In this document: positions 27,226 through 53,674 of the stretch, piece by piece
Position numbering within the stretch: position 1 is the stretch's first letter
Layout: each line of letters opens with the position of its first letter
From: Escherichia coli
GTDB taxonomy: Bacteria; Pseudomonadota; Gammaproteobacteria; Enterobacterales; Enterobacteriaceae
Assembly: GCF_041886205.1 (NCBI RefSeq)
Contig: NZ_CP169029.1
Direction: 5' to 3' (one strand)
DNA: 64,000 bases
Made by a program: the position numbers and the translations under genes
Notes under the pieces: generated by a model
Databases searched by the model: none
Told to the model about the DNA's origin: nothing
Seen by the model: only the letters and a program-made list of their open reading frames with translations

Positions 27226-27419
27226 TCCTGACTTAATGCCGCAAGTTCGCCAAATCGACCTGGATTAACCTCCGTCCAGGTTCGATGACCTTCTTAATAC
27301 TGCTTATCTACCGCCTGATATTGTTCAAAAATAATACTAATCGCAGTTTGTGTTAAAACGGCGGGTTAGCTTTATGAGATTATTCTTATCGCCCCTTCAA
27401 GAGCTAAGCCACTGAGAGT

Positions 27420-27710: not shown

Positions 27711-27729
27711 ACTGATAATCATTATCACT
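27711..27729 (+). promoter_or_regulatory. Fur box in the suf promoter
   Basis: actGATAATCATTATCac about 50 bp upstream of sufA ATG, close to the Fur consensus GATAATGATAATCATTATC; the suf operon is a known Fur target. Confidence 0.55.
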
Positions 27730-27772
27730 AACATGCTGTTATACGCTGAAAGCGATGAAGTGAGGTAAATCG

Positions 27773-28141: not shown

Positions 28142-28149
28142 GCGGTACT

Positions 28150-29637: not shown

Positions 29638-29646
29638 GGAATAAAT

Positions 29647-30393
29647 ATGTTAAGTATTAAAGATTTACACGTTAGCGTGGAAGATAAAGCTATCCTGCGC
29701 GGATTAAGCCTCGACGTTCGTCCCGGCGAAGTTCACGCCATTATGGGGCCAAACGGTTCGGGCAAAAGTACCTTATCGGCAACGCTTGCCGGGCGCGAAG
29801 ATTATGAAGTGACGGGCGGCACGGTTGAGTTCAAAGGCAAAGATTTGCTTGCACTGTCGCCGGAAGATCGTGCAGGCGAAGGCATCTTTATGGCCTTCCA
29901 GTATCCGGTGGAGATTCCAGGTGTCAGTAACCAGTTTTTCCTGCAAACGGCACTTAATGCGGTGCGCAGCTATCGCGGCCAGGAAACGCTCGACCGCTTT
30001 GATTTTCAGGATTTGATGGAAGAGAAAATCGCTCTCCTGAAGATGCCGGAAGATTTATTAACCCGTTCGGTAAACGTTGGTTTTTCCGGCGGCGAGAAAA
30101 AGCGCAACGATATTTTGCAAATGGCGGTGCTGGAACCGGAGTTATGCATTCTTGATGAGTCGGACTCCGGGCTGGATATTGACGCATTAAAAGTGGTCGC
30201 CGATGGCGTGAACTCGCTGCGTGATGGCAAGCGCTCATTCATCATTGTTACGCACTACCAACGCATTCTCGACTACATCAAGCCTGATTACGTTCATGTG
30301 CTATATCAGGGACGAATTGTGAAATCCGGCGATTTCACGTTGGTCAAACAACTGGAGGAGCAGGGTTATGGCTGGCTTACCGAACAGCAGTAA
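29647..30393 (+). CDS. sufC: Fe-S assembly ATPase SufC
   Basis: 248-aa ABC-type ATPase (GPNGSGKST, LDESDSGLD). Confidence 0.95.
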   Translation: MLSIKDLHVSVEDKAILRGLSLDVRPGEVHAIMGPNGSGKSTLSATLAGREDYEVTGGTVEFKGKDLLALSPEDRAGEGIFMAFQYPVEIPGVSNQFFLQTALNAVRSYRGQETLDRFDFQDLMEEKIALLKMPEDLLTRSVNVGFSGGEKKRNDILQMAVLEPELCILDESDSGLDIDALKVVADGVNSLRDGKRSFIIVTHYQRILDYIKPDYVHVLYQGRIVKSGDFTLVKQLEEQGYGWLTEQQ

Positions 30394-31639
30394 CGCGCTG
30401 CAACAGTGGCATCACTTGTTTGAAGCTGAAGGGACAAAACGCTCCCCGCAAGCACAGCAGCATTTACAACAATTGCTGCGTACCGGACTGCCGACACGTA
30501 AACATGAAAACTGGAAATATACGCCGCTGGAAGGGCTGATCAATAGCCAGTTTGTCAGCATTGCGGGAGAGATATCCCCACAGCAGCGTGATGCCTTAGC
30601 GTTAACGTTAGACTCCGTGCGGCTGGTGTTTGTCGATGGGCGTTACGTGCCCGCACTGAGCGATGCAACTGAAGGCAGCGGATATGAAGTGAGCATTAAC
30701 GACGACCGTCAGGGTTTACCCGACGCTATTCAGGCGGAAGTGTTTCTGCATTTGACGGAAAGCCTGGCACAAAGCGTGACGCATATCGCCGTGAAGCGCG
30801 GTCAACGGCCGGCAAAGCCATTGCTGTTAATGCATATCACCCAGGGCGTGGCAGGTGAAGAGGTGAACACTGCCCATTACCGACATCATCTGGATCTGGC
30901 GGAAGGTGCCGAAGCAACGGTGATCGAACATTTTGTCAGCCTGAATGATGCTCGTCATTTTACCGGGGCACGGTTCACTATCAACGTCGCAGCGAATGCC
31001 CACTTGCAGCATATCAAGCTGGCGTTTGAAAACCCGCTCAGTCACCACTTTGCTCATAACGATTTGTTGCTGGCTGAGGATGCCACCGCATTTAGCCACA
31101 GTTTCCTGCTGGGTGGCGCAGTGTTACGACACAACACCAGTACGCAACTCAATGGCGAAAACAGCACGCTGCGGATCAATAGCCTGGCGATGCCGGTGAA
31201 AAACGAGGTGTGTGATACCCGTACCTGGCTGGAACACAATAAAGGTTTTTGTAACAGCCGACAGTTGCACAAAACTATCGTCAGCGACAAAGGCCGCGCG
31301 GTATTTAACGGTTTGATCAACGTCGCGCAGCACGCCATCAAAACGGATGGTCAGATGACCAACAACAATCTGCTGATGGGCAAACTGGCGGAAGTGGATA
31401 CGAAACCGCAGCTGGAAATCTATGCAGATGATGTGAAATGCAGCCACGGCGCGACGGTGGGGCGTATTGATGATGAACAGATATTCTATCTGCGCTCGCG
31501 CGGGATCAATCAGCAGGATGCCCAGCAGATGATCATTTACGCCTTCGCTGCCGAACTGACGGAAGCACTGCGTGATGAGGGGCTTAAACAGCAGGTGCTG
31601 GCCCGAATCGGTCAACGGCTGCCAGGAGGTGCAAGATGA
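30368..31639 (+). CDS. sufD: Fe-S assembly protein SufD
   Basis: 423-aa ORF overlapping sufC by 26 bp. Confidence 0.93.
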
Positions 31640-32856
31640 TTTTTTCCGTCGACAAAGTGCGGGCCGACTTTCCGGTGCTTTCGCGTGAGGTAAACGGTTT
31701 GCCGCTGGCTTATCTCGACAGCGCCGCCAGTGCGCAGAAACCGAGCCAGGTGATTGACGCCGAGGCCGAGTTTTATCGTCATGGCTACGCGGCGGTGCAT
31801 CGTGGTATTCATACCTTAAGCGCCCAGGCGACCGAGAAAATGGAGAACGTGCGCAAGCGGGCATCGCTGTTTATTAATGCCCGTTCGGCGGAAGAGCTGG
31901 TGTTCGTCCGCGGCACGACGGAAGGGATCAATCTGGTCGCCAATAGCTGGGGCAACAGCAACGTGCGGGCGGGCGATAACATCATCATCAGTCAGATGGA
32001 GCACCACGCTAACATTGTTCCCTGGCAGATGCTTTGCGCACGCGTTGGCGCAGAGCTGCGTGTGATCCCGCTCAATCCCGATGGTACGTTGCAACTGGAG
32101 ACGCTGCCTACGCTGTTTGATGAGAAAACTCGCCTGCTGGCAATTACTCATGTCTCCAACGTGCTTGGCACAGAAAATCCACTGGCGGAAATGATCACGC
32201 TTGCGCACCAGCATGGCGCAAAAGTGCTGGTGGATGGCGCTCAGGCGGTGATGCATCATCCGGTGGATGTTCAGGCGCTGGATTGCGACTTTTACGTGTT
32301 CTCCGGGCATAAACTGTATGGCCCCACCGGAATTGGCATTCTTTATGTGAAAGAAGCCTTGTTGCAGGAGATGCCGCCGTGGGAAGGGGGCGGTTCTATG
32401 ATCGCCACCGTCAGCCTGAGTGAAGGCACTACCTGGACCAAAGCACCATGGCGGTTTGAAGCCGGTACACCCAATACCGGGGGCATCATTGGTCTTGGCG
32501 CGGCGCTGGAGTATGTTTCGGCGCTGGGGCTTAATAACATAGCCGAGTATGAACAGAATCTGATGCATTACGCGCTATCACAGCTGGAATCTGTACCGGA
32601 TCTCACTCTCTATGGCCCACAAAACAGGCTTGGCGTTATTGCTTTTAATCTCGGTAAACACCACGCCTATGATGTTGGCAGTTTTCTCGATAATTACGGC
32701 ATTGCTGTGCGTACCGGACATCACTGCGCTATGCCATTAATGGCCTATTACAACGTCCCTGCGATGTGTCGGGCGTCGCTGGCCATGTATAACACCCATG
32801 AAGAAGTGGATCGTCTGGTGACCGGATTGCAACGTATTCACCGTCTGCTGGGATAA
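31636..32856 (+). CDS. sufS: Cysteine desulfurase SufS
   Basis: 406-aa PLP-dependent class V aminotransferase-fold ORF, active-site Cys region (RTGHHCA). Confidence 0.95.
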
Positions 32857-32868
32857 CAGGGAGGCACT

Positions 32869-33285
32869 ATGGCTGTATTGCCGGATAAAGAAAAATTGCT
32901 GCGTAATTTTTTACGCTGCGCCAACTGGGAAGAGAAATATCTCTACATTATTGAGCTGGGCCAGCGTCTGCCAGAATTACGCGACGAAGACCGAAGCCCA
33001 CAAAATAGCATTCAGGGCTGCCAGAGTCAGGTGTGGATTGTCATGCGCCAGAATGCGCAGGGAATTATTGAATTGCAGGGCGACAGCGATGCGGCGATTG
33101 TGAAAGGGCTTATTGCGGTCGTCTTTATTCTCTACGATCAGATGACGCCGCAGGATATTGTCAATTTCGATGTGCGTCCGTGGTTTGAAAAAATGGCGCT
33201 CACCCAACATCTCACCCCATCTCGTTCACAAGGTCTGGAAGCGATGATTCGCGCAATTCGCGCCAAAGCCGCTGCACTTAGCTAA
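32869..33285 (+). CDS. sufE: Sulfur acceptor SufE
   Basis: 138-aa ORF. Confidence 0.95.
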
Positions 33286-33433
33286 ACTAAAGGGACAGCT
33301 TTCATCCGGTTGGCTCACATTGCCGGATGGTCAATGTTTACACTGACCTGCACAGGAGTGTTTTGGTTTCAGGTGAACATAAGCGCCATCCGACGTTTCA
33401 GCGTGAGTCTCCGGCAAATACAGGAGGTTTACA

Positions 33434-34438
33434 ATGAAACGCGCGTCTTTGCTTACACTCACGCTTATCGGCGCTTTTAGCGCCATCCAGGCTGCCTGGG
33501 CGGTTGATTATCCGCTACCACCAACCGGAAGCCGACTGGTTGGGCAAAATCAAACGTATACGGTGCAAGAAGGGGATAAAAACCTTCAGGCTATTGCCCG
33601 ACGTTTTGATACTGCGGCAATGTTGATCCTTGAAGCCAATAACACTATCGCCCCGGTGCCAAAGCCCGGTACGACGATAACTATTCCTTCGCAACTGTTA
33701 TTACCTGATGCGCCGCGTCAGGGGATTATCGTTAACCTTGCAGAGCTGCGCCTTTATTATTATCCGCCGGGAGAAAATATCGTGCAGGTTTATCCGATAG
33801 GTATTGGCTTGCAGGGGCTGGAAACGCCGGTGATGGAAACGCGTGTGGGGCAGAAAATCCCTAACCCAACCTGGACGCCTACGGCAGGCATTCGTCAACG
33901 TTCGCTGGAGCGTGGCATTAAATTACCGCCAGTCGTTCCTGCCGGACCAAATAACCCGCTAGGACGTTACGCACTGCGCCTCGCGCATGGTAATGGCGAA
34001 TACCTCATTCATGGCACCAGTGCGCCGGACAGCGTTGGTTTGCGCGTCAGTTCAGGGTGTATTCGCATGAATGCACCGGATATTAAAGCCTTGTTCTCCA
34101 GCGTGCGGACGGGAACGCCGGTGAAAGTGATCAACGAACCGGTGAAATATTCCGTGGAACCTAACGGGATGCGTTATGTTGAAGTACATCGACCACTATC
34201 AGCAGAAGAACAGCAAAACGTTCAGACAATGCCATACACACTGCCAGCAGGCTTTACGCAATTTAAAGACAATAAGGCTGTAGATCAGAAGTTAGTCGAT
34301 AAAGCGTTGTATCGTCGGGCAGGGTATCCGGTTTCGGTGAGCAGTGGAGCAACTCCCGCAGCCAGCAATGCGCCTTCAGTAGAGTCAGCGCAGAATGGTG
34401 AACCAGAGCAAGGGAATATGTTACGCGCGACGCAGTAG
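33434..34438 (+). CDS. ldtE: L,D-transpeptidase LdtE (YnhG) with LysM domain
   Basis: 334-aa ORF, signal peptide, YkuD catalytic motif ([20 protein letters not shown]). Confidence 0.9.
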
Positions 34439-34453
34439 CGGTAAACGGCAAAC

Positions 34454-34485
34454 AAAAAAAATGGCGCACAATGTGCGCCATTTTT
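34454..34485. terminator. Bidirectional terminator between convergent ldtE and lpp
   Basis: A-run, palindrome tggcgcaca-a-tgtgcgcca, T-run. Confidence 0.65.
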
Positions 34486-34501
34486 CACTTCACAGGTACT
34501 A

Positions 34502-34750
<249 letters not shown>

Positions 34751-34993
34751 CTAGATTGAGTTAATCTCCATGTAGCGTTACAAGTATTACACAAAGTTTT
34801 TTATGTTGAGAATATTTTTTTGATGGGAAGGCACTTATTTTTGATCGTTCGCTCAAAGAAGCATCGAACGCTGGGTTTTAGATAAAAAAATTGAGAGAAA
34901 ACAGGATGCTTCCATCGGATTCATCTTAGATAAAGTGAGATTATATAGTGAAATCCGATTTGATTTTTTATTGCTTCTGGTTATCGATTAAAT

Positions 34994-35017
34994 AAAAAAA
35001 GCGCCCATCAGGGCGCT
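34994..35017 (-). terminator. Rho-independent terminator after pykF
   Basis: agcgccc-atca-gggcgct preceded on the + strand by an A-run (T-run on the coding strand). Confidence 0.6.
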
Positions 35018-35048
35018 TCGATATACAAATTAATTCACAAAAGCAATA

Positions 35049-36461
35049 TTACAGGACGTGAACAGATGCGGTGTTAGTAGTGCCGCTCGGTACCAGTGCA
35101 CCAGAAACCATAACTACAACGTCACCTTTGTGTGCCAGACCGCTCTGCAGAGCCAGTTCTTTACCCAGACGGTAGAAATCATCAGTAGAAGTGATCTCTT
35201 TAACCAGCTGCGGCACAACGCCTTTGCTCAGTACCAACTGATGAGCCGTTTTTTCGTTGGTGGTCAGTGCCAGGATGGTGGCATCCGGGAAGTATTTACG
35301 TACTGCGCGAGCAGATTTACCGCCCTGAGTAGCAACCACGATCAGCGGAGCATCCAGTTTTTCAGCAGTTTCAACGGCACCACGGCATACCGCTTCGGTA
35401 ATGCGCAGTTTACGGTTGTCATTGTTGAACTCGAGACGGCTGTTCATCACGCGGTCGGTACGTTCGCAGATGGTCGCCATGATAGAAACCGCTTCCAGCG
35501 GGTATTTACCTTTTGCGGATTCACCAGACAGCATCACTGCGTCAGTACCGTCGAGGATGGCGTTTGCAACGTCACCGGCTTCTGCGCGAGTCGGGCGTGG
35601 GTTTTTGATCATGGAATCCAGCATCTGGGTCGCAGTGATAACGACTTTACGTGCACGGATACATTTTTCGATCATCATCTTCTGGGCGAAGATAACTTCT
35701 TCTACCGGGATTTCTACACCCAGGTCGCCACGCGCAACCATGATGCCGTCAGAGGCTTCGAGGATTTCGTCGAAGTTGTTGAGGCCTTCCTGGTTTTCGA
35801 TTTTGGAGATGATGTGGATGTTTTCGCCGCCGTGCGCTTTCAGGTGCTCACGGATTTCGATAACGTCAGAACGCTTACGAATAAAGGAAGCAGCAACAAA
35901 GTCTACGCCTTGTTCGCAACCAAAGATCAGGTCCTGTTTGTCTTTTTCAGCCAGTGCTGGCAGAGCAATGGAAACGCCAGGCAGGTTCACACCTTTGTTT
36001 TCGCCCAGGTCACCGTTGTTCAGCACTTTACAGATAACTTTGTTACCTTCAATGGCGGTAACTTCCATACCGATCAGACCATCGTCAACCAGTACGGTGT
36101 TGCCAACAGACAGGTCAGTAGTGAAACCTTCATACGTTACCGCAACCATTTCGCTGTTGCCGATAACAGATTTATCAGTGGTGAAAGTAAAGGTCTGACC
36201 AGCTTTCAGAGAAACGTCGTTACCGCCTTCCAGTTTCATGGTGCGGATTTCCGGACCTTTGGTATCAAGCAGGATAGCGGCGGTTTTACCAGTTTTGCTC
36301 ATCACGTTGCGCAGATTCTGAATGCGCTGACCGTGTTCTGCATAGTCACCATGAGAGAAGTTCAGACGCATAACGTTCATGCCAGCGTCCAGCATTTTAG
36401 CTAACATCTCTTCAGATTCGGTTTTCGGTCCGATGGTGCAAACAATTTTGGTCTTTTTCAT
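35049..36461 (-). CDS. pykF: Pyruvate kinase I
   Basis: 470 aa from [40 protein letters not shown]...; ORF track extends 72 codons further upstream, not used. Confidence 0.95.
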
Positions 36462-37017
36462 GACAGTCTTAGTCTTTAAGTTGAGAAGGATGGGAGAAAC
36501 TTGCTTTCTGGGCGCACTGCCGGAAAGCGAATCCGGTATTACGAAAGTGGTGGTGCCTCGCTCTAAGGATAGGTGACATCGAAAAAGCGTGCAGAGGAAT
36601 GTGTGCTTGTGTCTCAGCCCAACGTGAGTGCCTGTTTTTGAGTCGTTGAGTTCTACAGTCCAAAGTGCTGAAACCATTCAAGAGTCAATTGGCGCGCATT
36701 ATACGCTGAAATTAATCCAAAAGGAAAACAAAAACAGCGTTTCAAAAAATATACAACTTGTTAGACAATAAATTGTTATCAAAGATTTAACGTTCCAGGG
36801 AAAAGGTTACGCAAAAACTTCACTGTTTGCGCAACGTCTGGTGCCGAAGTTGTCAGTGTGAGGATAAGTGAAAGTTCATCCGGTGTATAAATATATCATC
36901 GCTCAATTGCTACAGTTAAAATAATTTATCGCGTTATTTGTCTGATTTTGTTTGATTTTTGTTTAATTGGTTAGATTGATATATGCTGATAGTTGGCATG
37001 ATAAATAGGTATAAAGA

Positions 37018-37227
37018 ATGGGAAATCGGACAAAAGAGGATGAACTGTACCGAGAAATGTGCAGAGTTGTCGGTAAAGTTGTGCTGGAAATGCGCGATCT
37101 GGGGCAGGAACCAAAGCATATTGTTATCGCAGGCGTATTACGTACAGCATTAGCCAATAAACGCATTCAGCGCAGTGAGCTGGAAAAGCAGGCGATGGAA
37201 ACCGTCATTAACGCACTGGTAAAATGA
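37018..37227 (+). CDS. fumD: Small protein YdhZ (fumarase D)
   Basis: 69-aa ORF MGNRTKEDELYREMCRVVGKVVLEMRDLGQEPKHIVIAGVLRTALANKRIQRSELEKQAMETVINALVK. Confidence 0.75.
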   Translation: MGNRTKEDELYREMCRVVGKVVLEMRDLGQEPKHIVIAGVLRTALANKRIQRSELEKQAMETVINALVK

Positions 37228-37467
37228 CCATTCAGGATGAGGCGGTAAGCTTCATCCTGATATTCTTGCTTCAGTTGCGGTCCAGTTAATCATTCTAAAT
37301 AACAACTGCTGAAATTATACGAATTGCGGTATGTATTTTAATTTATAACGATAATATTATTTTTATTTTCTGCAATGAACGTCACAAATAATTGTCGCTT
37401 AAGTTAAATTTATTTTAAATGATAATAAATATCAGTTCACTTATAATTTCTTGCTTTGTAATTTTAA

Positions 37468-37481
37468 TTGATAACGATCAA
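37468..37481. promoter_or_regulatory. Perfect FNR-box palindrome upstream of ydhY
   Basis: TTGATAACGATCAA matches the TTGAT-N4-ATCAA consensus; the ydhYVWXUT operon is reported to be FNR-activated. Confidence 0.65.
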
Positions 37482-37682
37482 TGTTAAGGGTTCAGAATAA
37501 TTACATTATTTTTTCTCCTAACCATAAAGGATTAGTTTATCGGCGTTAAATCTTTTCTCATACACTATCGGGTTAGGGAAAATATCTGGTGTTGGGGACA
37601 GAGTCAGCAGCGTATTAGTTGAATGCTTAATATCAGGCTGCTGAATTGTCAGCACTGTGTTTGCGAAGAGGATGCGAAATAA

Positions 37683-40432
<2,750 letters not shown>

Positions 40433-40435
40433 GGA

Positions 40436-41083
40436 ATGGGTAAGATGAACCATCAGGATGAATTGCCGTTAGCGAAAGTCAGCGAAGTTGACGAGGCGAA
40501 GCGGCAATGGTTGCAGGGGATGCGTCACCCCGTTGATACGGTAACCGAACCAGAACCTGCTGAAATCCTGGCTGAGTTCATTCGCCAGCATTCTGCGGCT
40601 GGGCAGCTGGTGGCGCGCGCCGTGTTTCTCTCGCCACCCTATTTGGTTGCAGAAGAGGAACTGTCAGTTTTGCTGGAAAGCATTAAGCAGAACGGAGACT
40701 ACGCGGATATCGCTTGTTTGACGGGAAGCAAGGATGATTACTATTACTCAACGCAGGCCATGAGTGAAAACTACGCGGCGATGTCTTTGCAAGTTGTGGA
40801 GCAGGACATTTGTCGCGCCATTGCACACGCCGTTCGTTTTGAGTGCCAGACGTATCCTCGTCCTTACAAAGTCGCCATGCTGATGCAAGCGCCATATTAC
40901 TTCCAGGAAGCGCAGATTGAAGCCGCGATCGCCGCGATGGATGTTGCACCTGAATATGCCGATATACGGCAGGTGGAGTCATCGACGGCGGTGTTGTACT
41001 TGTTTAGCGAGCGATTTATGACCTATGGCAAGGCTTATGGCTTATGCGAATGGTTCGAGGTAGAGCAGTTTCAGAACCCCTGA
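40436..41083 (+). CDS. ydhW: Uncharacterised protein YdhW
   Basis: 215-aa ORF in conserved position. Confidence 0.85.
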   Translation: MGKMNHQDELPLAKVSEVDEAKRQWLQGMRHPVDTVTEPEPAEILAEFIRQHSAAGQLVARAVFLSPPYLVAEEELSVLLESIKQNGDYADIACLTGSKDDYYYSTQAMSENYAAMSLQVVEQDICRAIAHAVRFECQTYPRPYKVAMLMQAPYYFQEAQIEAAIAAMDVAPEYADIRQVESSTAVLYLFSERFMTYGKAYGLCEWFEVEQFQNP

Positions 41084-41146
41084 AATTTCAGGGAGATGTC
41101 ATGGATAGGGTGGACAGTTGCAGCCACTGCATTAGGGGATAATCAG

Positions 41147-41815
41147 ATGTCCTTCACTCGACGCAAATTTGTTCTGGGGATGGGAACAGTAATCTTTTTT
41201 ACTGGTTCTGCGTCTTCTCTGTTAGCGAACACGAGGCAAGAAAAGGAAGTTCGGTATGCCATGATTCATGACGAGTCACGGTGCAATGGCTGTAATATTT
41301 GCGCCCGCGCATGCCGTAAAACTAACCACGTCCCCGCTCAGGGAAGCCGTTTATCGATAGCACACATTCCAGTCACCGATAACGACAACGAAACGCAGTA
41401 TCACTTTTTTCGCCAGTCATGTCAGCACTGCGAAGATGCTCCGTGCATCGACGTTTGCCCGACGGGGGCATCGTGGCGTGATGAGCAGGGGATCGTGCGG
41501 GTAGAAAAATCGCAGTGCATCGGCTGCAGTTATTGCATTGGCGCTTGTCCGTACCAGGTTCGCTACCTTAACCCTGTCACTAAAGTGGCAGATAAATGTG
41601 ATTTCTGCGCTGAGTCCCGGCTGGCAAAAGGCTTTCCGCCCATTTGCGTCAGCGCTTGTCCGGAACACGCATTGATCTTTGGTCGCGAAGATAGCCCAGA
41701 AATTCAGGCGTGGTTGCAGGAAAATAAATACTATCAATATCAGCTACCTGGTGCCGGGAAACCGCATCTGTATCGCCGGTTCGGTCAACATTTGATTAAA
41801 AAGGAAAATGTATGA
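41147..41815 (+). CDS. ydhX: 4Fe-4S ferredoxin-like protein YdhX (Tat signal)
   Basis: Start taken at MSFTRRKFVLGMGTVIFFTGSASSLLA (twin-arginine motif); ORF track begins 17 codons earlier at 41096. Confidence 0.82.
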   Translation: MSFTRRKFVLGMGTVIFFTGSASSLLANTRQEKEVRYAMIHDESRCNGCNICARACRKTNHVPAQGSRLSIAHIPVTDNDNETQYHFFRQSCQHCEDAPCIDVCPTGASWRDEQGIVRVEKSQCIGCSYCIGACPYQVRYLNPVTKVADKCDFCAESRLAKGFPPICVSACPEHALIFGREDSPEIQAWLQENKYYQYQLPGAGKPHLYRRFGQHLIKKENV

Positions 41816-42597
41816 ACCCGTCGCAACATGCTGAACAGTTTCAGAGCCAGTTAGCGAACTATGTGCCACAGTTCACTCCCGAATTTTGGCCGGTGTGGTT
41901 GATCATTGCCGGAGTATTGCTGGTTGGGATGTGGTTGGTGCTGGGGCTGCACGCCTTGCTTCGTGCTCGTGGCGTGAAGAAATCAGCCACCGATCATGGT
42001 GAGAAGATTTATCTTTACAGCAAAGCGGTCAGATTATGGCACTGGTCGAATGCGTTACTCTTTGTATTGTTGCTGGCAAGTGGGCTGATAAATCACTTTG
42101 CGCTGGTGGGCGCAACTGCGGTCAAAAGTCTGGTTGCGTTGCATGAAGTTTGCGGATTTTTGTTACTCGCATGCTGGCTCGGCTTTGTGCTGATCAATGC
42201 TGTTGGGGGTAATGGTCACCACTATCGCATTCGTCGTCAGGGGTGGCTGGAACGAGCGGCAAAACAAACGCGATTTTATTTGTTTGGCATTATGCAGGGG
42301 GAAGAACATCCTTTCCCGGCAACAACCCAGTCTAAATTTAATCCCTTACAGCAGGTCGCCTATGTTGGTGTCATGTATGGATTGCTGCCGTTGTTACTAT
42401 TGACGGGGCTGCTGTGTCTCTATCCGCAAGCCGTGGGAGATGTGTTTCCTGGCGTAAGATACTGGTTATTGCAGGCGCATTTTGCTCTGGCATTTATAAG
42501 CCTCTTTTTTATCTTCGGTCATCTTTATCTTTGCACCACGGGGCGTACGCCACACGAAACCTTTAAAAGCATGGTCGATGGCTATCACCGGCACTAA
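41812..42597 (+). CDS. ydhU: PhsC-like membrane cytochrome b subunit YdhU
   Basis: 261-aa polytopic membrane ORF overlapping ydhX stop. Confidence 0.85.
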   Translation: MNPSQHAEQFQSQLANYVPQFTPEFWPVWLIIAGVLLVGMWLVLGLHALLRARGVKKSATDHGEKIYLYSKAVRLWHWSNALLFVLLLASGLINHFALVGATAVKSLVALHEVCGFLLLACWLGFVLINAVGGNGHHYRIRRQGWLERAAKQTRFYLFGIMQGEEHPFPATTQSKFNPLQQVAYVGVMYGLLPLLLLTGLLCLYPQAVGDVFPGVRYWLLQAHFALAFISLFFIFGHLYLCTTGRTPHETFKSMVDGYHRH

Positions 42598-42600
42598 CGA

Positions 42601-43413
42601 ATGATCATTACACGAGCAGACCTGCGAGAATGGCGTATCGGAGCGGTGATGTATCGCTGGTTCCTGCGCCATTTCCCACGCGGCGGTAGTTATGCCGATA
42701 TTCATCATGCACTGATTGAGGAAGGATATACGGACTGGGCGGAGAGTCTGGTTGAGTATGCGTGGAAAAAATGGCTGGCGGATGAAAACTTCGCGCATCA
42801 GGAAGTTTCCTCTATGCAAAAACTGGCCACAGACCCCGGAGAGATACCATTTTGCAGTCAGTTTGCCCGCAGCGACGATCATGCTCGCATCGGCTGTTGT
42901 GAGGATAACGCCCGAATCGCAACCGCTGGGTATGCCGCGCAAATTGCCAGTATGGGTTATAGCGTGCGGATTGGAAGTGTCGGCTTTAACAGTCACATTG
43001 GCAGCTCCGGTGAACGCGCACGGGTTGCTGTAACCGGTAATTCTTCGCGGATAAGCAGCGCTGGAGATAGTAGTCGGATTGCGAACACCGGAATGCGAGT
43101 ACGCGTTTGTACATTGGGTGAACGGTGTCATGTCGCCAGTAATGGTGACCTGGCGCAAATCGCCAGCTTTGGCGCAAACGCCAGAATTGCCAACAGCGGC
43201 GACAATGTACACATCATTGCCAGCGGTGAAAATTCAACGGTTGTGAGCACGGGCGTGGTCGACTCAATTATTCTCGGGCCAGGGGGAAGCGCCGCACTGG
43301 CATATCATGACGGCGAAAGAGTTCGCTTCGCCGTCGCCATTGAAGGTGAAAACAATATTCGAGCCGGAGTCCGCTATCGTCTTAATGAACAGCATCAGTT
43401 TGTTGAGTGCTGA
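42601..43413 (+). CDS. ydhT: Uncharacterised protein YdhT, with about 15 tandem 9-residue repeats
   Basis: 270-aa ORF; residues ~95-229 form repeats of the form x-[RQH]-[IV]-x-x-x-G-x-x (ARIATAGYA / AQIASMGYS / VRIGSVGFN / SHIGSSGER ...). Confidence 0.85.
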   Translation: MIITRADLREWRIGAVMYRWFLRHFPRGGSYADIHHALIEEGYTDWAESLVEYAWKKWLADENFAHQEVSSMQKLATDPGEIPFCSQFARSDDHARIGCCEDNARIATAGYAAQIASMGYSVRIGSVGFNSHIGSSGERARVAVTGNSSRISSAGDSSRIANTGMRVRVCTLGERCHVASNGDLAQIASFGANARIANSGDNVHIIASGENSTVVSTGVVDSIILGPGGSAALAYHDGERVRFAVAIEGENNIRAGVRYRLNEQHQFVEC

Positions 43414-43424
43414 TAGCTTTACCT

Positions 43425-45029
43425 TTAATCAAACGAAAGACGCCGACGTGCACGGGATGCAGGTTTTACGACCGCCCGAGCCATCGCCTCACCAATTTCT
43501 GCACATGCCGTAAGTCCCTGAACGAAAGGCTGGTCGTGCATCAACCAGGGCAACGCGCCGAACGCTACGCGTCCACGAATATCTTCGGGTTGCTGTAACG
43601 TATAATCTTCGCCAACATCAGGGATTTCATCCCCTGTTTTCTGTAATTGCTCGCGTAGCCCAGGGAAAGGAATATCTTTCACTTTAAGCGGACGCTGTCC
43701 GCGGGCATCAATAAAAACGTCAAACGAGTAGCTGTTGTCTTCCGTTTTCAGGACGGTGCGCGACTCATTAATTTCCATTTCGTAGTCTTCACCGAGGGCG
43801 AGAATATGAATGATCCCCGCTTCACGTAAGGCCAGCAGCCGACGAATAGACTCTGAAGGGATTGCCGCATAATTATCGATAAAAACCCGGGTAAGGCCTT
43901 TACTGAACCGTTTATGGTCGTGTTCATTCAGATGTGGAACAATTTCCTGTACGGCTTCATGCAGGCGCAGAATGACATAACGCCAGGGAACAGTATGTTT
44001 TTCTCGTTTATTGCGTTCGACTTCCTGGAGATTTTTTTCTGCCCAGTCAAATGGGTCGCGTTGTTTGCGCTCGGCAAACCAGGCTTGAGCAAAGGAATCG
44101 ACATTCAGGCTCTCTAAGGCTATGCGTTGGCTCCAGTCTGGATCAGCAAACTTGATTTCCTCTACTATCAATCTAAATACCCGATCCAAAAGGCCCTCTT
44201 CGCCTTTTTGAATCTCAGCATTTAATGCCTGATCGGTGACAATGTGTAAGGACTCGTAGGGAATAGGGCAATAGAAATCGGCTTCGGGTAAAATACCCGT
44301 GCGCGACATCAACGTGATATTTAGCTTTTCACTTGCGTTATCGCGGTGAAAAACGACGTGTTGTTTATCATCTTCAATGAACGAACCATGCTGAATAGCC
44401 ACTGCCATTGCCGCATCCAGTCCGCTCAAGGATGTTCCCATAATACCCACGTTACACGCATCGACCTTTGCTTCCATCAGGCCTGACCACGGGCTGGGAA
44501 AATACGTTCGGGTTGCTTCTTCTTCATCAGGCCAGACGTGACCCGTGGCAATCACCGCTAAATCAAACGTCTCGCTGGGTAAACCCTGATTTGTAGCGAG
44601 CATGACGCCAGCATTTGTAATTTGCAGATCGGTAACCTGGCATGATTCATAAACAGCCACTGCAAATTTTTGCTTTCGTGCCTGGTCTACTAATCGTAAA
44701 AATTGATCGCGGAAATATTCGCCCAGCAGAATTCGCGGTAAAAACTGACGATCGTGCAAGGTTTCTTTTTTAACGCCATAACGCTGGAGATGGCTGGCTT
44801 CTTGCTTTTGTAGCCATTCGAGATACGTACAATTAATCGGCGGTATTTCAATACTGGCAATATTTGCCAGCATCATTTTTGAGTTTTCCTCATCACTGTA
44901 TGGCATCCCGACACCGGCCTCGTCAGCCTGCTCGAAGATAGAAATAGAAAGTGGAGTTTGTTGCTGTAGAAGCGAGAATAAGGTGTAGATCCCCGTAGGC
45001 CCGGCACCCACAATAGCAATTTTTTTCAT
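43425..45029 (-). CDS. ydhS: FAD/NAD(P)-binding protein YdhS
   Basis: 534-aa ORF with N-terminal Rossmann motif (IAIVGAGPTG). Confidence 0.85.
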   Translation of the reverse strand: MKKIAIVGAGPTGIYTLFSLLQQQTPLSISIFEQADEAGVGMPYSDEENSKMMLANIASIEIPPINCTYLEWLQKQEASHLQRYGVKKETLHDRQFLPRILLGEYFRDQFLRLVDQARKQKFAVAVYESCQVTDLQITNAGVMLATNQGLPSETFDLAVIATGHVWPDEEEATRTYFPSPWSGLMEAKVDACNVGIMGTSLSGLDAAMAVAIQHGSFIEDDKQHVVFHRDNASEKLNITLMSRTGILPEADFYCPIPYESLHIVTDQALNAEIQKGEEGLLDRVFRLIVEEIKFADPDWSQRIALESLNVDSFAQAWFAERKQRDPFDWAEKNLQEVERNKREKHTVPWRYVILRLHEAVQEIVPHLNEHDHKRFSKGLTRVFIDNYAAIPSESIRRLLALREAGIIHILALGEDYEMEINESRTVLKTEDNSYSFDVFIDARGQRPLKVKDIPFPGLREQLQKTGDEIPDVGEDYTLQQPEDIRGRVAFGALPWLMHDQPFVQGLTACAEIGEAMARAVVKPASRARRRLSFD

Positions 45030-45415
45030 TGTTACTTACCTGTACGCATTCTTTCGAATTTAGTGTTATCAGATAAGTTTGGTTGAGATTTTTAGAATTT
45101 GAGAAATTTCAGACAGGGATGAAAAGGGCGCTAACCGCCCTTGATTAAATTCTGTCAGGCGAGTTTTGCCTGATTGATTTGACTCAGTGGCTCATTGACA
45201 TCGAAAACTTTGGCGACAACTTCCTCAACGCCGAGATTTTTAAGTCGGGCAGTATGTTTTTCCAGATAGGCAAGGGCGCTTTTTTCATCAGTAAAAAGAT
45301 AGATCCCACCGGCTTCGTGGTTCTTTTCACTTTCTGTCCATACCTTCCACAGAAAACCAGGTTCCTGATTAATTGAACCGCCCCGGGTTTCCTGGAGAGT
45401 GTTTTATCTGTGAAC

Positions 45416-46306
45416 TCAGGCTGCCAGATCATCGTTTCCGATGGAAGCATAATAAGCTTTTTCTGCTTCTGCCGGAGGAGTATGGCCCAGCCTTTCCAGC
45501 AATCGTCGATTGTTATACCAGTCCACCCACGTGAGTGTGGCCAGTTCCACTTCTGCACGGTTTTTCCAGCTCTTACGGTGTATTACCTCCGCTTTGTAAA
45601 GACCATTGATGCTCTCCGCCATCGCGTTGTCATACGAGTCGCCTGTACTTCCTGTTGATGCCAGTAATCCGGCTTCCTTAAGCCGCTGTGTGTAGGCCAG
45701 CGATACATACTGAGAACCTTTATCACTGTGATGGACCGTGCCGGACGGTCGACGGGCCCATAACGCCTGCTCCAGTGCATCCAGCACGAATGTCGTTTCC
45801 ATGGACGATGAGACCCGCCACCCCACGATGTATCCGGCAAACACATCAATGATGAACGCCACATAGACGAAGCCCCGCCATGTGCTGACGTAAGTAAAAT
45901 CAGCCACCCACAGCTGGTCAGGTCGTTCTGCCACGAACTGACGGTTTACGCGGTCGCCTGCGGCAACGGCTTTCCGGCTGATGGTCGTACGGACCTTTTT
46001 ACCCCGGAGAACACCGGCAAGTCCCATAACCGCCATGAGACGTGCCACAGTGCATCTGGCCACTCTGATACCTTCCCGTAACAACTGACGCCAGACTTTA
46101 CGCACACCGTATACCTTGTGATTTTCATCGTATACGCGCTGTATCTCTTTCTTCAGCCAGTCATCGCGCTGCGCACGGGCACTGCGTTTATCCGGATGAT
46201 GTCGCTGTTGCTGACAGTGGTAATACGTTGACGGGGCAATATGCAGTTCGCTGCATAGCGGTCCGACCCCGTACTGCTCACGCAGCTTATCCAGCAGTGG
46301 CATCAT
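45416..46306 (-). CDS. IS629 OrfB (DDE integrase-core transposase; normally fused to OrfA by frameshift)
   Basis: 296-aa ORF containing a DDE-type integrase core (WVADFTYV..., ...HSDKGSQY...). Confidence 0.9.
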
Positions 46307-46629
46307 TTTTTCCAGAGGCGGTCGAACTCCGCCTTCGCAAAATAAGCGGAAGCCTGGCGAAGGATATCGTTACTGCGGCGCAGTTCACGATTTTCACGTT
46401 CCAGCTCTTTCAGACGCTGACGTTCAGCGGTGGTGAGCCCTCCATCACCGCCCCCGGTATCCCGCTCATGCTGGCGAACCCAGACACGCAGAGTCTCCGG
46501 CGTACAGCCAATCTTTGGAGCAATGGAACAAATTGTCGCCCATTGTGAGTCATATTCGCTCTGACTTTCCAGAACCATACGGACTGCCCGTTGACGGACT
46601 TCGGGGGAAAAACGAGTATTTTTAGTCAT
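46303..46629 (-). CDS. IS629 OrfA (HTH transposase subunit)
   Basis: 108-aa [63 protein letters not shown]... Confidence 0.9.
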
Positions 46630-46880
46630 CCTGTTTACCTCTTTCTCAGGAAGTTTAGTCTCCAGGATTCCCGGGGCGGTTCAAATCGACTCAGCAAGCG
46701 GTTTAAGCTGCTCAGCCATTGCGTCGCCAAATGGGCCATTAAAAGCAAAATGAAGTTGTAACAAAGTTGCCATAGCGATTCTCCTTCTGATAACGCATAC
46801 GAAGACAGTGTAAATCTTTTAACGTATTGGATACAGAGAAGAAACAGAGGGAAAAAGGAGAAGACCAGATTAAGAAAATC

Positions 46881-46957
46881 TGGTGCGTCCGAGTGGACTC
46901 GAACCACCGACCCCCACCATGTCAAGGTGGTGCTCTAACCAACTGAGCTACGGACGC
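46881..46957 (-). tRNA. valW: tRNA-Val (anticodon GAC)
   Basis: rc = GCGTCCGTAGCTCAGTTGGTTAGAGCACCACCTTGACATGGTGGGGGTCGGTGGTTCGAGTCCACTCGGACGCACCA; cloverleaf and CCA end present. valV/valW assignment between the two copies is uncertain. Confidence 0.93.
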
Positions 46958-46961
46958 AGGA

Positions 46962-47038
46962 TGGTGCGTTCAATTGGACTCGAACCAACGACCCCCACCA
47001 TGTCAAGGTGGTGCTCTAACCAACTGAGCTATGAACGC
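46962..47038 (-). tRNA. valV: tRNA-Val (anticodon GAC)
   Basis: rc = GCGTTCATAGCTCAGTTGGTTAGAGCACCACCTTGACATGGTGGGGGTCGTTGGTTCGAGTCCAATTGAACGCACCA; 4-nt spacer to the second copy. Confidence 0.93.
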
Positions 47039-47345
47039 AACGTTGTAGGTGACAACGGGGACGAATATTAGCGGCAGAGTGGGAAGGTGGCAAGAGGCAA
47101 AACGTAATTTTCTGCGCTATTTCGACCGTTTGCAGAGCTTTTAAGCAAATTGGCTATATTTTGTTGATTTGCAAGGGCGATTTTTATTCAGGATCGCATT
47201 TACATCTGATACAACCCAATAATTCGTGTATCAGAGTTTAAACAGAGTTGTTTGCCACCATCTCAAATCTGTCGTGGATAAATCCTCCGTAGCCTTTACA
47301 CTTAGGTAGCAATAAAGGCACACAGATGCAGCAAAGGAATAAATC

Positions 47346-48602
47346 ATGGGATCTGATGCGAAAAACTTGATGAGCGACGGGAATGTGCAAATTGTTAAGA
47401 CCGGCGAGGTCATTGGCGCGACGCAACTTACTGAAGGCGAGTTGATTGTTGAAGCTGGCGGAAGAGCCGAAAATACCGTGGTCACGGGGGCTGGCTGGTT
47501 GAAAGTGGCAACCGGTGGGATCGCCAAATGTACACAGTACGGTAACAATGGCACGCTATCGGTCAGCGACGGTGCCATTGCCACAGATATTGTTCAGTCC
47601 GAGGGAGGCGCAATTAGTCTCTCTACGCTCGCTACGGTTAATGGCCGCCATCCCGAAGGTGAATTCAGCGTTGATCAGGGTTATGCCTGCGGTTTGTTGC
47701 TGGAAAATGGCGGTAACCTGCGTGTACTGGAAGGACATCGCGCGGAAAAAATCATTCTCGATCAAGAGGGCGGCCTGTTGGTTAATGGGACAACCTCAGC
47801 GGTCGTGGTAGATGAAGGTGGTGAATTGTTGGTGTATCCAAGTGGGGAAGCCAGCAATTGTGAGATTAATCAGGGCGGCGTTTTTATGCTGGCCGGGAAA
47901 GCCAGTGATACGTTGCTTGCTGGTGGCACCATGAATAATCTCGGTGGTGAAGACTCTGACACTATTGTTGAGAATGGATCCATTTATCGTCTGGGGACGG
48001 ATGGCCTTCAGCTCTACAGTTCCGGTAAGACGCAAAACCTGTCCGTGAATGTGGGTGGTCGGGCTGAAGTGCATGCCGGTACGCTGGAAAATGCGGTAAT
48101 ACAAGGTGGGACAGTGATCCTGTTGTCACCCACCAGCGCGGACGAAAATTTTGTCGTAGAGGAAGATCGCGCACCGGTTGAACTGACCGGGAGTGTTGCA
48201 TTACTGGACGGCGCTTCAATGATTATTGGCTATGGCGCAGATCTGCAACAATCAACGATTACTGTACAGCAGGGCGGTGTATTGATTCTCGACGGCAGTA
48301 CGGTAAAAGGTGACAGTGTCACTTTAAATGTTGGTAACATCAATCTAAATGGCGGAAAACTGTGGCTAATCACTGGTGCGGCAACGCATGTGCAACTGAA
48401 AGTGAAACGCCTGCGCGGAGAGGGAGCGATTTGCCTGCAAACCAGTGCGAAAGAAATTTCACCTGACTTCATCAATGTGAAAGGGGAAGTTACCGGTGAT
48501 ATACACGTTGAGATAACAGATGCCAGTCGGCAAACTCTGTGTAACGCACTGAAACTACAGCCAGACGAAGACGGGATTGGCGCAACGCTCCAGCCTGCGT
48601 AA
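47346..48602 (+). CDS. ydhQ: Autotransporter-adhesin-related passenger-like protein YdhQ (no beta-barrel domain)
   Basis: 418-aa Gly/Val-rich ORF with pertactin-like short repeats; matches YdhQ length and position. Confidence 0.82.
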   Translation: MGSDAKNLMSDGNVQIVKTGEVIGATQLTEGELIVEAGGRAENTVVTGAGWLKVATGGIAKCTQYGNNGTLSVSDGAIATDIVQSEGGAISLSTLATVNGRHPEGEFSVDQGYACGLLLENGGNLRVLEGHRAEKIILDQEGGLLVNGTTSAVVVDEGGELLVYPSGEASNCEINQGGVFMLAGKASDTLLAGGTMNNLGGEDSDTIVENGSIYRLGTDGLQLYSSGKTQNLSVNVGGRAEVHAGTLENAVIQGGTVILLSPTSADENFVVEEDRAPVELTGSVALLDGASMIIGYGADLQQSTITVQQGGVLILDGSTVKGDSVTLNVGNINLNGGKLWLITGAATHVQLKVKRLRGEGAICLQTSAKEISPDFINVKGEVTGDIHVEITDASRQTLCNALKLQPDEDGIGATLQPA

Positions 48603-48641
48603 AAACACAGGCGCAACCCGTGAAGGTTGCGCCTTGTCTTT
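48603..48641. terminator. Bidirectional terminator between convergent ydhQ and mdtK
   Basis: ggcgcaacc-cgtgaa-ggttgcgcc flanked by A-rich and T-rich tracts. Confidence 0.5.
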
Positions 48642-48642
48642 A

Positions 48643-50037
<1,395 letters not shown>

Positions 50038-50230
50038 TTATATGAGAGACTAAAAAGCCGCCTGAATGGGCAGCAAAAAGAAGAAGCAGGGGAAATTCAG
50101 TCTATTGTAGCGAGGATTTATTAATTCTCCAGTGAAAAAATAGTCATTCTTACCCCTTCACTGGTAAGGGCGTTTGCCACCTGCTATTGTGCTGAACAGA
50201 ATGTCTTAACTGATTTCAGGAGTTGTAAGT

Positions 50231-50872
50231 ATGTTTACGGGGATTGTACAGGGCACCGCAAAACTGGTGTCGATTGACGAGAAACCAAATTTTCGCACAC
50301 ATGTGGTGGAGTTACCCGACCACATGCTGGACGGTCTGGAAACCGGTGCTTCCGTGGCGCATAACGGTTGCTGCCTGACCGTGACGGAAATTAACGGCAA
50401 CCATGTCAGTTTTGACCTGATGAAAGAAACGTTGCGCATTACCAATCTTGGCGATTTAAAAGTGGGGGATTGGGTAAACGTTGAGCGTGCGGCGAAATTC
50501 AGTGATGAAATTGGCGGACACTTAATGTCAGGTCATATTATGACTACCGCTGAAGTAGCGAAAATATTAACCTCGGAAAATAATCGCCAGATCTGGTTTA
50601 AAGTCCAGGATAGTCAGTTGATGAAATATATTCTGTACAAAGGATTTATTGGCATCGACGGTATTAGCCTGACCGTCGGCGAAGTCACGCCAACGCGTTT
50701 TTGCGTCCATTTAATTCCGGAAACACTGGAACGCACGACTCTTGGGAAGAAAAAACTTGGCGCACGCGTCAACATTGAAATCGATCCACAAACTCAGGCA
50801 GTGGTAGATACGGTAGAACGTGTGCTGGCGGCACGAGAAAATGCCATGAATCAACCAGGTACAGAAGCCTGA
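50231..50872 (+). CDS. ribC: Riboflavin synthase alpha subunit
   Basis: 213-aa [54 protein letters not shown]... (gene also called ribE in some annotations). Confidence 0.93.
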
Positions 50873-50911
50873 TCTGAAATCGCCCCCGGAGAGGGGGCGA
50901 TAGAATAGCCT

Positions 50912-52060
50912 TTAGCGAGCCACTCGAAGGCCGTTTTCAACACCGCGTGAGAACACGACCTGCCAGAGCTGAATATCACGGGCGCGGAAAGCACCTGCAC
51001 AGGCATTCAGATAATAGGTAAACATTCGTTTAAAGCGTTCACTGTAGTTATCCGCAATTTCTGGCCATGCGGCGAGGAATCGTTCATACCACGCCATCAA
51101 CGTAGTATCGTAATCAGCACCGAAGTTATGCCAGTCTTCCATCACAAAGTGGGGTTCGCTGGATTGAGCAATCTGGCGTACAGAGGGCAGGCAACCGTTC
51201 GGAAAAATATATTTATTAATCCAGGGATCAACATTCAGATCGGTTTTTTTCGAACCGATAGTATGGAGCAGGAATATACCTTCCGGTTTCAAATTACGAT
51301 CCACCACCGCAAAATAGGTATCGTAATTTTTCGGTCCGACGTGCTCGAACATCCCCACAGAAACAATACGATCAAACTGGTCGTTCAGGTCACGATAATC
51401 TTGCAGCAAAATGGTGACATCCAGGCCTTCACAGCGTTCCTGAGCCATTTTTTGCTGTTCGGCAGAAATGGTGACGCCGACCACGCTTACGTCATAGTTA
51501 GATGCCATGTAGTGCGCCAGTCCGCCCCAGCCGCAGCCAATATCCAGTACGCGCATCCCTGGTTTTAACTGCAATTTTTCACAAATCATTTTGAGCTTCG
51601 CCTGCTGGGCAGATTCCAGATTATCGGCATCTTTCCAGTAAGCGCAGGAATATTGCATGAAGGGATCAAGCATGCGGCTGAACAAGTCATTACCCAAATC
51701 GTAATGCTCCTTGCCGACTATCCAGGCACGTTTTTTACTCTGCAGATTGAAGAGACGAGCGCCGGCAATACGCAGCGTGTCTTTGAAATGATGGGGGAGT
51801 TGGTTCTCGAGACCTGCGCGTAAGACTTTGCTAAAAAACATATCCAGTCGGTCACATTCCCACCAGCCATCCATATAACTTTCGCCTAACCCCAAAGAGC
51901 CTTCTTGCAGAACGCGTTTAAAAAAATCGGGGTTTTTCACACGAATATCCGCCGGGGCAGAACCGTTAATGGCTATACCGGCACGGCTAAGTAATTCGTT
52001 GGCGATACGGTACCAGTTGTCATCCGGTACACTGACTTCTTCTATACACGATGAACTCAT
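50912..52060 (-). CDS. cfa: Cyclopropane-fatty-acyl-phospholipid synthase
   Basis: 382-aa ORF with SAM-binding motif VLDIGCGWGG. Confidence 0.95.
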   Translation of the reverse strand: MSSSCIEEVSVPDDNWYRIANELLSRAGIAINGSAPADIRVKNPDFFKRVLQEGSLGLGESYMDGWWECDRLDMFFSKVLRAGLENQLPHHFKDTLRIAGARLFNLQSKKRAWIVGKEHYDLGNDLFSRMLDPFMQYSCAYWKDADNLESAQQAKLKMICEKLQLKPGMRVLDIGCGWGGLAHYMASNYDVSVVGVTISAEQQKMAQERCEGLDVTILLQDYRDLNDQFDRIVSVGMFEHVGPKNYDTYFAVVDRNLKPEGIFLLHTIGSKKTDLNVDPWINKYIFPNGCLPSVRQIAQSSEPHFVMEDWHNFGADYDTTLMAWYERFLAAWPEIADNYSERFKRMFTYYLNACAGAFRARDIQLWQVVFSRGVENGLRVAR

Positions 52061-52350
52061 AGTTTCTCCATCACTGGTCGGTGATCAGAACCTTAAAACA
52101 GCGTAGACGCTTTTTGGGCTTTGTGAGAAATCTCGCAGAAAAAACCGCGAGTCTATAATCCGACGTAGAACAGAGGGAAAGGAGGAACCCTTGCCGAAAT
52201 GACCATCCATAGTGAGTCGGGAACGATCCTGTCCCCGTAAAAACATAATATTTATCGTAGCTTTAACAACTCGAAATTAGTATAGGCCGCTAATTTCAAT
52301 CATACAACAAAATTTTGTTAGCAGCCTAAGTATAAGTATATCGATATAGA

Positions 52351-53562
52351 TCAGTGTGATTCGCTATGAGCGACTTCGGCATTGCCATGATTCTGGCAGC
52401 CAACTTCTTCACAACGTTGCATCATGTAACCCAGCGCGACCAGCACTACTGTTGATAACATCACGCTGGTGGTGGTGAGCAATGGCGTGCTGATACTGAT
52501 CAGCCAGGAAACTACCAGACTTGCGAGGAAGCACAGACCCAGTTGTAGAGTGTTCTGCAACGCTGCGGCGCGACCAGTTGCGTGTGGGAAGGGACGCAGC
52601 GCCTGGGCGACAACAATAGGGTAGATCGCGCCATTGGCAATCGCCATCACACAGAATGGGATCAGAATTTCGACCAGCGACACATGGCTAATGAAGCCCG
52701 CAGCCCAGGTCGCAATGACGCTGACAGCAAACAGCACCAGCAACCACGGTAATAACTGCTTGCCTTGCCATTTCTGCAGCGCGGCGCGACAGCCATAACC
52801 ACCAATCAGAAACGCGATAGTTTGCGGGACATAACTTAAACCAATAACTGCCGGGCTGTAGCCCATTTCACTAAGGATGAACGGTGAACCGGTCAGCCAT
52901 GCAAAAAAACTGGCTGAACAGGCCGCGTATATCAGCACGTTGCCGCGATAGGTTTTAGAACGTAGCAGGTCGGTAAAGGTCAGACCATCCTGACTATTGT
53001 TACGGGCCTTCGTCGTGGGTTTGAGCCAGAAAATAGGCAGAATCAGCACCACGGTAATGGCAAACAGGGTGGCGAAAATCGCTTGCCAGGAAAAATGGAC
53101 CAGCAGCCAGCTTCCTAACAGAGGAGCCAGGGCCGGAGATAGACCCACCAGCGGCATGATGGTCGCAAAAATTCGGTTAACTTTCTGTGAAGGATAATAA
53201 TCCGTCACTAACGCTTGCCAGATAACCGCCGCGGCGCAGACACCCACAGCCTGTACAAAACGCAATACCAGCAGCGTAGCGGCGTTTTCTACCCACAGCA
53301 TCCCCAGACTACCTAACGCAAAAATTGTCAGGCCGATTAATAATACCGGTTTACGACCATAACGGTCGGAGAGCGGCCCCCACAGAAGCTGGGCTGCGGC
53401 AAAACCGGCAAGGAACAGACTAAGGCTGGCACTGACAGCAGACGCAGGCGTTTGCAGGTCGGCCTGTATGGCGGCGAAAGCAGGCAGATACATATCGGTT
53501 GCCAGAAAACCGAGTACGCTCAAACCCGCCAGCCAGACTAAAAATCTTTTCCCAGGTTGCAT
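52351..53562 (-). CDS. ydhC: MFS transporter YdhC (PunC)
   Basis: 403-aa polytopic ORF in conserved position, divergent from ydhB. Confidence 0.85.
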
Positions 53563-53674
53563 GTATATTCTCTAAATCTCTCAATTAAACACCGCCGCAA
53601 AGTGTAGGGAGTGAAATTAGTGTTGTGAAACGGTAATATTTGATGACTGGTTTCAAAAATTTTGCAGGCAGACT

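Follow-up and report, generated by a model that had tools for sequence, protein, structure and literature searches.

Insertion of an IS629 element into the ydhR gene of Escherichia coli and the clustering of IS629-family elements around ydhR and valVW

A complete IS3-family element of 1310 bp (positions 45374-46683) interrupts ydhR in the 64,000-nucleotide stretch of E. coli DNA analysed here, referred to as the window. The arrangement almost certainly arose when an intact IS629 inserted at codon 30/31 of this chromosomal gene, in a simple and recent event. The event is of an already known kind and ordinary in nature: a common, well-characterised insertion sequence in a dispensable gene. The only part of the analysis worth further attention is the clustering of related insertions around the same gene in other E. 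coli genomes.

The span 45371-46686 corresponds exactly to the element and the two copies of its target-site duplication. Its components and the neighbouring genes are the following:

45374-46683, minus strand: complete IS629 (IS3 family), with transposase genes in the same direction as ydhR
45371-45373, no strand: left copy of the target-site duplication AAT; the 3-bp overlap at the empty site of E. coli 6EVA
46684-46686, no strand: right copy of the target-site duplication AAT; read on the minus strand, it is the ydhR codon ATT (Ile30)
46659-46683, minus strand: left inverted repeat (IRL) TGAACCGCCCCGGGAATCCTGGAGA, upstream of orfA
45374-45398, plus strand: right inverted repeat (IRR) TGAACCGCCCCGGGTTTCCTGGAGA, 23/25 identical to IRL
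46303-46629, minus strand: orfA, 108 aa, helix-turn-helix DNA-binding protein (Pfam HTH_Tnp_1, E = 7e-13)
45416-46306, minus strand: orfB, 296 aa counted from its ATG and read in the -1 frame with respect to orfA (Pfam rve, E = 8e-28; HTH_21; rve_3)
46303-46311, minus strand: frameshift site, in which an A6 run (46306-46311) borders directly on the TGA that ends orfA (46303-46305), with overlap of the orfB ATG (...CUCUGGAAAAAAUGAUGCC...)
46232-46348, minus strand: ALIL (apical-loop/internal-loop) pseudoknot (Rfam RF01497, 120.2 bits for a gathering score of 50, E = 6.6e-32, full model 1-117)
46684-46773, minus strand: 5' fragment of ydhR, codons 1-30, closed by the TGA at the end of the IS (46681-46683) to give a 30-aa ORF (46681-46773)
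45155-45370, minus strand: 3' fragment of ydhR, codons 31-101 and the stop (71 codons), with no in-frame start codon
46881-47038, minus strand: valW and valV, an intact tRNA-Val(GAC) pair upstream of ydhR and outside the element (ARAGORN; Rfam tRNA, 69.6 and 70.1 bits)

The two ends share the sequence TGAACCGCCCCGGG (14/14), and as an imperfect inverted repeat they match at 23/25 positions over 25 nt. At the left junction CCTGATTAAT is followed by TGAACCGCCCCGGGTTTCCTGGAGA and at the right junction TCTCCAGGATTCCCGGGGCGGTTCA is followed by AATCGACTCAGC. The length lies within the 1.2-1.5 kb of the IS3 family, the imperfect repeats end in 5'-TG...CA-3' (TGAACC...GGTTCA) and AAT is present on both sides, as a direct duplication within the 3-4 bp observed for this family. 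Element type, size, termini and duplication had all been given in the original prediction and are exact to the base.

The empty site is found in E. coli 6EVA (NZ_CP138428.1), where ydhR is intact and annotated. Window positions 26370-45373 align with positions 1-19003 of this locus (L004) with 8 mismatches and 1 gap, while positions 46684-64000 align with 19001-36317 with neither mismatches nor gaps. The two flank alignments overlap inside ydhR by exactly AAT. These three bases therefore represent a true duplication and not a chance 3-mer.

The name of the element was assigned from annotated records and the literature, with DNA identity of roughly 95% upward taken as isoform level. Over its 1310 bp the window copy matches, at 100% identity, copies from many E. 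coli chromosomes and plasmids (hundreds of copies) as well as one in a phage 21 int fragment. It shares 99.5% identity over all 1310 bp with the mobile_element 'insertion sequence: IS3 family IS629' of LC567824.1 (Stx2a phage Stx2_499), whose genes are labelled 'IS629 transposase OrfA/OrfB', a close rather than a distant similarity. A variant labelled 'IS3-like element IS1203 family transposase' by RefSeq/PGAP is 96.3% identical, and a four-way alignment of variants shows no gaps across 1310 columns. Judged from these comparisons, 'IS629-type' appears to be the right designation. The window copy shares with IS629 (isoforms IS1203, IS1203v and IS3411, from Shigella sonnei and E. coli) the 1310-bp length, the termini TGAACCGCCCCGG...CA, the 3-bp duplication, the orfA/orfB organisation with its putative -1 frameshift, the ALIL pseudoknot and the DDE transposase, its nucleotide sequence being 99.5-100% identical to that of annotated or RefSeq copies. 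Nothing structural separates them; the difference lies solely in where the element has inserted (ydhR codon 30/31, in the orientation of the window). IS911, IS2, IS3 and IS150 also share two ORFs, a -1 frameshift, a DDE transposase, TG...CA ends and a presumed copy-out/paste-in transposition via a circle, but their sequences are different. The frameshift stimulator is an ALIL-type pseudoknot in IS629, in contrast to the stem-loop or classical pseudoknot of, for example, IS911 and IS150.

It is unlikely that the element should be treated as an insertion sequence different from IS629 and named IS1203 or IS3411. The RefSeq name 'IS1203 family' carried by the 96.3%-identical variant would favour this, as would the ALIL pseudoknot, which was defined on IS3411. 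However, the window copy is nearer to the copy annotated IS629 (99.5%) than to the IS1203 type (96.3%), and both IS1203 and IS3411 are counted as isoforms of IS629 (PMC3271280; bioRxiv 10.1101/2023.06.07.543989). The choice between these names is a matter of naming, not of biology. IS629 itself comprises three subtypes 4-5% apart, generates duplications of 3-4 bp and has no sequence-specific target (PMC3271280). It transposes via a circular intermediate and its excision is enhanced by IEE (bioRxiv 10.1101/2023.06.07.543989).

The two overlapping transposase frames that had been matched to IS629 correspond to orfA and orfB. They overlap by ATGA, with orfB in the -1 frame, and no frameshift or stop was seen inside either. 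Against the NCBIfam model NF033516 (IS3 family transposase, cutoff 160), the conceptual OrfAB fusion of 404 aa reaches 365 bits. It includes the catalytic residues D244, D303, E339 and K346, and the spacing D303-(35)-E339-(6)-K346, with a lysine seven residues past the glutamate, corresponds to the DD(35)E-K signature of the IS3 family. Where orfA ends, the transcript would read CUC UGG AAA AAA UGA UGC. The -1 frameshift window is intact, with the A6 run, the TGA and the ALIL match. RefSeq genomes containing DNA 100% identical to the element label it 'IS3 family transposase, programmed frameshift' (WP_151327001.1) and also mark this pseudoknot; the joined CDS of 1214 nt yields 404 aa. Two overlapping ORFs with predicted -1 frameshift signals, a helix-turn-helix OrfA and a DDE OrfB are the organisation expected of the IS3 family. 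Because this sequence integrity has been kept, the copy in ydhR is apparently functional.

It is therefore very improbable that the copy is a dead relic whose transposase is inactive, or that it belongs to some larger structure, composite or rearranged. IS copies tied to deletions do exist, both in the window (the IS1 at 15738, without a target-site duplication and next to a 16.3-kb deletion) and elsewhere (IS629-adjacent deletions in VR50 and OkiPb01713). Here, however, the target-site duplication is perfect and the two flanks align colinearly to the empty site, while integrity is retained by the two ORFs with their DDE residues, by the frameshift signals and by the inverted repeats at either end. 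The element is identical to hundreds of copies elsewhere, and the 64-kb window holds no second IS629 copy with which it could form a composite.

Removal of the IS and one AAT restores a minus-strand ORF of 101 aa, which is YdhR. This protein is identical at 101/101 positions to the E. coli PDB chains 2ASY, 1WD6 and 2HIQ, and matches the YdhR family over its full length (PF08803 / NF008333; 169.9 bits on NCBIfam NF008333, cutoff 103), in agreement with the earlier proposal that joining the flanks restores the gene. The ydhR interval is uninterrupted in 5391/5425 complete E. coli genomes. The idea that ydhR naturally ends or starts at the insertion point, the IS lying between two genes, has only the small size of the fragments in its favour and a negligible probability, since the joined flanks encode the full crystallised protein and homologues, including the intact 6EVA gene, continue past this point.

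A simple insertion after codon 30 (ATT, Ile) thus remains the preferred explanation, and family knowledge suggests how it may have occurred. IS629 would encode OrfA and, by programmed -1 frameshifting on the A6 run, the OrfAB DDE transposase, the downstream ALIL pseudoknot stimulating the frameshift. OrfAB would excise a circular copy of the element (copy-out). The circle would then be pasted into its target through staggered cuts 3 bp apart, whose repair would generate the AAT duplication. The expected outcome is a ydhR stub of 30 aa that stops at the TGA with which the IS ends, with valV-valW left intact.

The allele is predicted to be null, with this 30-aa stub as its product. The 3' fragment is probably not expressed as a protein because it has no in-frame start codon. 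A consensus scan for outward hybrid promoters or terminators at the IS junctions found none above shuffled expectation. YdhR is a structural-genomics protein with the NCBIfam label 'monooxygenase' and a poorly defined role. At least 10 other natural E. coli carry an IS-disrupted ydhR, which suggests that its loss has a low phenotypic cost, consistent with the small cost proposed from the sequence.

The tRNA-Val pair that had been noted next to ydhR is recovered by both ARAGORN and Rfam. The individual tRNA-Val(GAC) genes occupy 46881-46957 and 46962-47038 on the minus strand. Northern data indicate that valV-valW is terminated in a Rho-dependent manner and is not co-transcribed with ydhR (PMC2190699). 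An effect of the insertion on tRNA-Val supply is therefore unlikely, the two genes being intact and separate from the ydhR transcript. A match to the Rfam family HPnc0260, a Helicobacter 'antisense RNA', covers window positions 46757-46919 on the plus strand (112 bits, gathering score 59). The 3' third of this match aligns to the reverse complement of tRNA-Val, and the match is probably driven by this tRNA antisense sequence and does not correspond to a real sRNA.

Both junction queries failed to find the same ydhR codon 30/31 junction in the window orientation among 5,426 complete E. coli genomes. An exact 28-mer junction had 0 matches in 100,044 species-representative genomes and a 30-mer junction had 0 matches in JGI metagenome contigs. 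The ydhR::IS629 allele of the window is probably private and recent. A private insertion site is unremarkable for an active IS.

IS629 had been described as typical of Shigella and of some pathogenic E. coli lineages. This part of the original prediction calls for correction. An IS629-type match occurs in 4263/5426 complete E. coli genomes (79%), and the flanks of the insertion are near-identical to those of ordinary faecal and animal E. coli, which makes a Shigella origin of the window seem unlikely. Near-full copies (at least 80% of the element) are present in 3042/5426 of these genomes, and the number of IS629-type places per genome has a median of 4 and a maximum of 53. A further 3392 plasmids have a match; the majority come from Escherichia, and Shigella, Salmonella and Klebsiella are represented too. 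With such a frequency among E. coli genomes, the presence of IS629 says little on pathotype.

The two IS1 copies mentioned alongside IS629 lie at 3749-4516 and 15738-16505. They are 100% identical and inverted relative to each other. The first is flanked by a 9-bp duplication (GCTCTGATG) within a pseudogene of espL1 (type III effector-like) and is absent from 6EVA and HS. The second has no target duplication. It abuts a deletion of 16,311 bp relative to 6EVA, which extends from within ydiF to within ydiV and takes out ydiO, ydiP, ydiQRST, fadK, ppsA, ppsR, aroH, hemP and selO; this looks like an IS1-mediated adjacent deletion. The IS629 in ydhR, both IS1 copies and the IS1-adjacent deletion are all lineage-specific relative to 6EVA. 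These four IS-related differences, despite only 17 mismatches over about 61 kb, support recent IS activity in the lineage of the window. The suggestion of an IS-expanded genome thus gains support as regards recent activity, but expansion itself is not something that a single window can show. The main use of the ydhR::IS629 allele is as a strain marker and, together with the IS1 copies and the deletion, as evidence of this activity.

About 25 distinct site/orientation combinations of IS629-family insertions (20 verified and ~5 inferred) occur in other E. coli within a ~1.1-kb interval around ydhR. This interval covers the 5' end of ydhS, ydhR and the valV-valW operon up to just upstream of ydhQ (L004 18485-19618, window 44855-47301). 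Four chimeric queries, each composed of 250 bp of ydhR flank and 250 bp of IS end (both sides, both orientations), were searched against complete E. coli genomes and joined flank and IS in 9, 11, 12 and 16 genomes. Two control queries with the same IS end and the cfa-punC or fumD-ydhY intergenic flanks, 5-9 kb away, were joined in 0 and 0 genomes. The twenty verified combinations, all from other genomes, are given below in L004 coordinates, which are converted to window positions by adding 26370 to the left of the IS and 27683 to its right:

18637: IS629-family, window orientation, AREA_504
18698: IS629-family, window orientation, ERL05-1306
18707: IS629-family, window orientation, TB354
18829: IS629-family, window orientation, MA11
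18896: IS629-family, window orientation, XPFI_3_2
18932: IS629-family, window orientation, 582 and TUM9812
18943: IS629-family, window orientation, F3398
18989: IS629-family, window orientation, 23AR0151
19500: IS629-family, window orientation, HCP4S3_I4
19581: IS629-family, window orientation, 210221272 and 14EC001
19615: IS629-family, window orientation, CEC01302
19281/19379 (junctions): IS629-family, window orientation, CEC96047, with one tRNA-Val copy lost and one left beside the IS
18485: IS629-family, opposite orientation, NCTC9699
18586: IS629-family, opposite orientation, Z1815
18761: IS629-family, opposite orientation, UPEC-245U
18932: IS629-family, opposite orientation, VR50
19001: IS629-family, opposite orientation, 2013C-4974 and OkiPb01713
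19090: IS629-family, opposite orientation, B2 and APEC 102026
19102: IS629-family, opposite orientation, NCTC11151
19549: IS629-family, opposite orientation, FDAARGOS_1300

Match spans alone point to ~5 further sites, in F3113, FORC 064, WCHEC050613, RIMD 0509939, and F8798 with DEC5E. The clustered variants are 94.9%-100% identical to the window copy. Among several O157:H7 strains in the cluster, the site differs from one strain to the next. The alleles located in ydhR itself (2013C-4974, 23AR0151, F3398, 582, TUM9812, XPFI_3_2 and MA11) have the gene, the element family and the 3-bp duplications in common with that of the window. They differ in their positions, or in their orientation at the same position, and involve variants 95-100% identical, which argues that they arose as independent events.

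In 2013C-4974, a variant of 95.0% identity sits in the same AAT target as the window copy and is oppositely oriented (L020 2251-3560). OkiPb01713 (L026) has the same right junction as the AAT site together with an adjacent deletion of 238 bp that removes the 3' part of ydhR. The hits on this one trinucleotide in the window, 2013C-4974 and OkiPb01713 are independent. Other trinucleotides have been re-used by different variants or orientations: GAT at 18932, TAG at 19090 and CAA at 19581.

In VR50 (L025), ydhV is joined directly to the IS at the GAT site of ydhR with the loss of ~5 kb. A genome encoding the same YdhS protein (GCA_052260635.1, L034 8895-9605) has a 404-aa IS3-type transposase gene within the ydhV region, ~3 kb from ydhR. 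None of the mapped sites lies within the tRNA genes or their promoter, these genes being presumably spared through selection.

An IS629-family element lies within ~1.5 kb in 37/5,426 complete genomes, where a uniform spread of ~25,000 chromosomal places predicts ~7.5, these being per-genome counts in which related strains are not merged and which are set beside two control loci. The expectation for the chromosomal backbone would be lower than ~7.5 because most IS629 copies sit in prophages (PMC3271280). The central interval is interrupted in 34/5425 genomes.

No target consensus emerged from 19 aligned 3-bp sites, in agreement with PMC3271280. AT-richness was rejected as the cause of the cluster: the interval has 38-46% GC, yet the AT-rich intergenic control flanks had no insertions. 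A decoy resembling the inverted repeat was also rejected. Nothing in the interval lies within 4 mismatches of the 14-nt terminus, and the one match found, of 8 nt, cannot account for sites spread over 1.1 kb. This match (AACCGCCC, to the IS629 terminus TGAACCGCCCC) is held by the terminator-like hairpin of ydhR (GGGCGCTAACCGCCC, window 45131-45141, L004 18761-18771). The adjoining CTA is the junction of the UPEC-245U insertion and the end of the deletion in OkiPb01713. The occurrence of AACCGCCC beside a re-used target could reflect targeting to sequences resembling the inverted repeat or could be a coincidence.

Among main texts, and in the supplements of PMC3271280, no literature was found that ties IS629 to ydhR, ydhQ or ydhS or describes the cluster. 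Tentatively, and at slightly short of an even chance, the ydhS-ydhR-valVW-ydhQ interval may be a true regional hot spot for IS629-family insertion, brought about by targeting and not by tolerance of insertions. If so, a local determinant would influence target choice, for example a bound host factor, or DNA topology or R-loops around the valVW operon, which is highly transcribed and Rho-terminated. Targeting would also call for caution in IS629-based strain typing, since one site can be struck independently more than once. The interval would then provide a natural, compact and non-essential locus for studying the target choice of an IS3-family transposase regarded as having 'no sequence specificity'.
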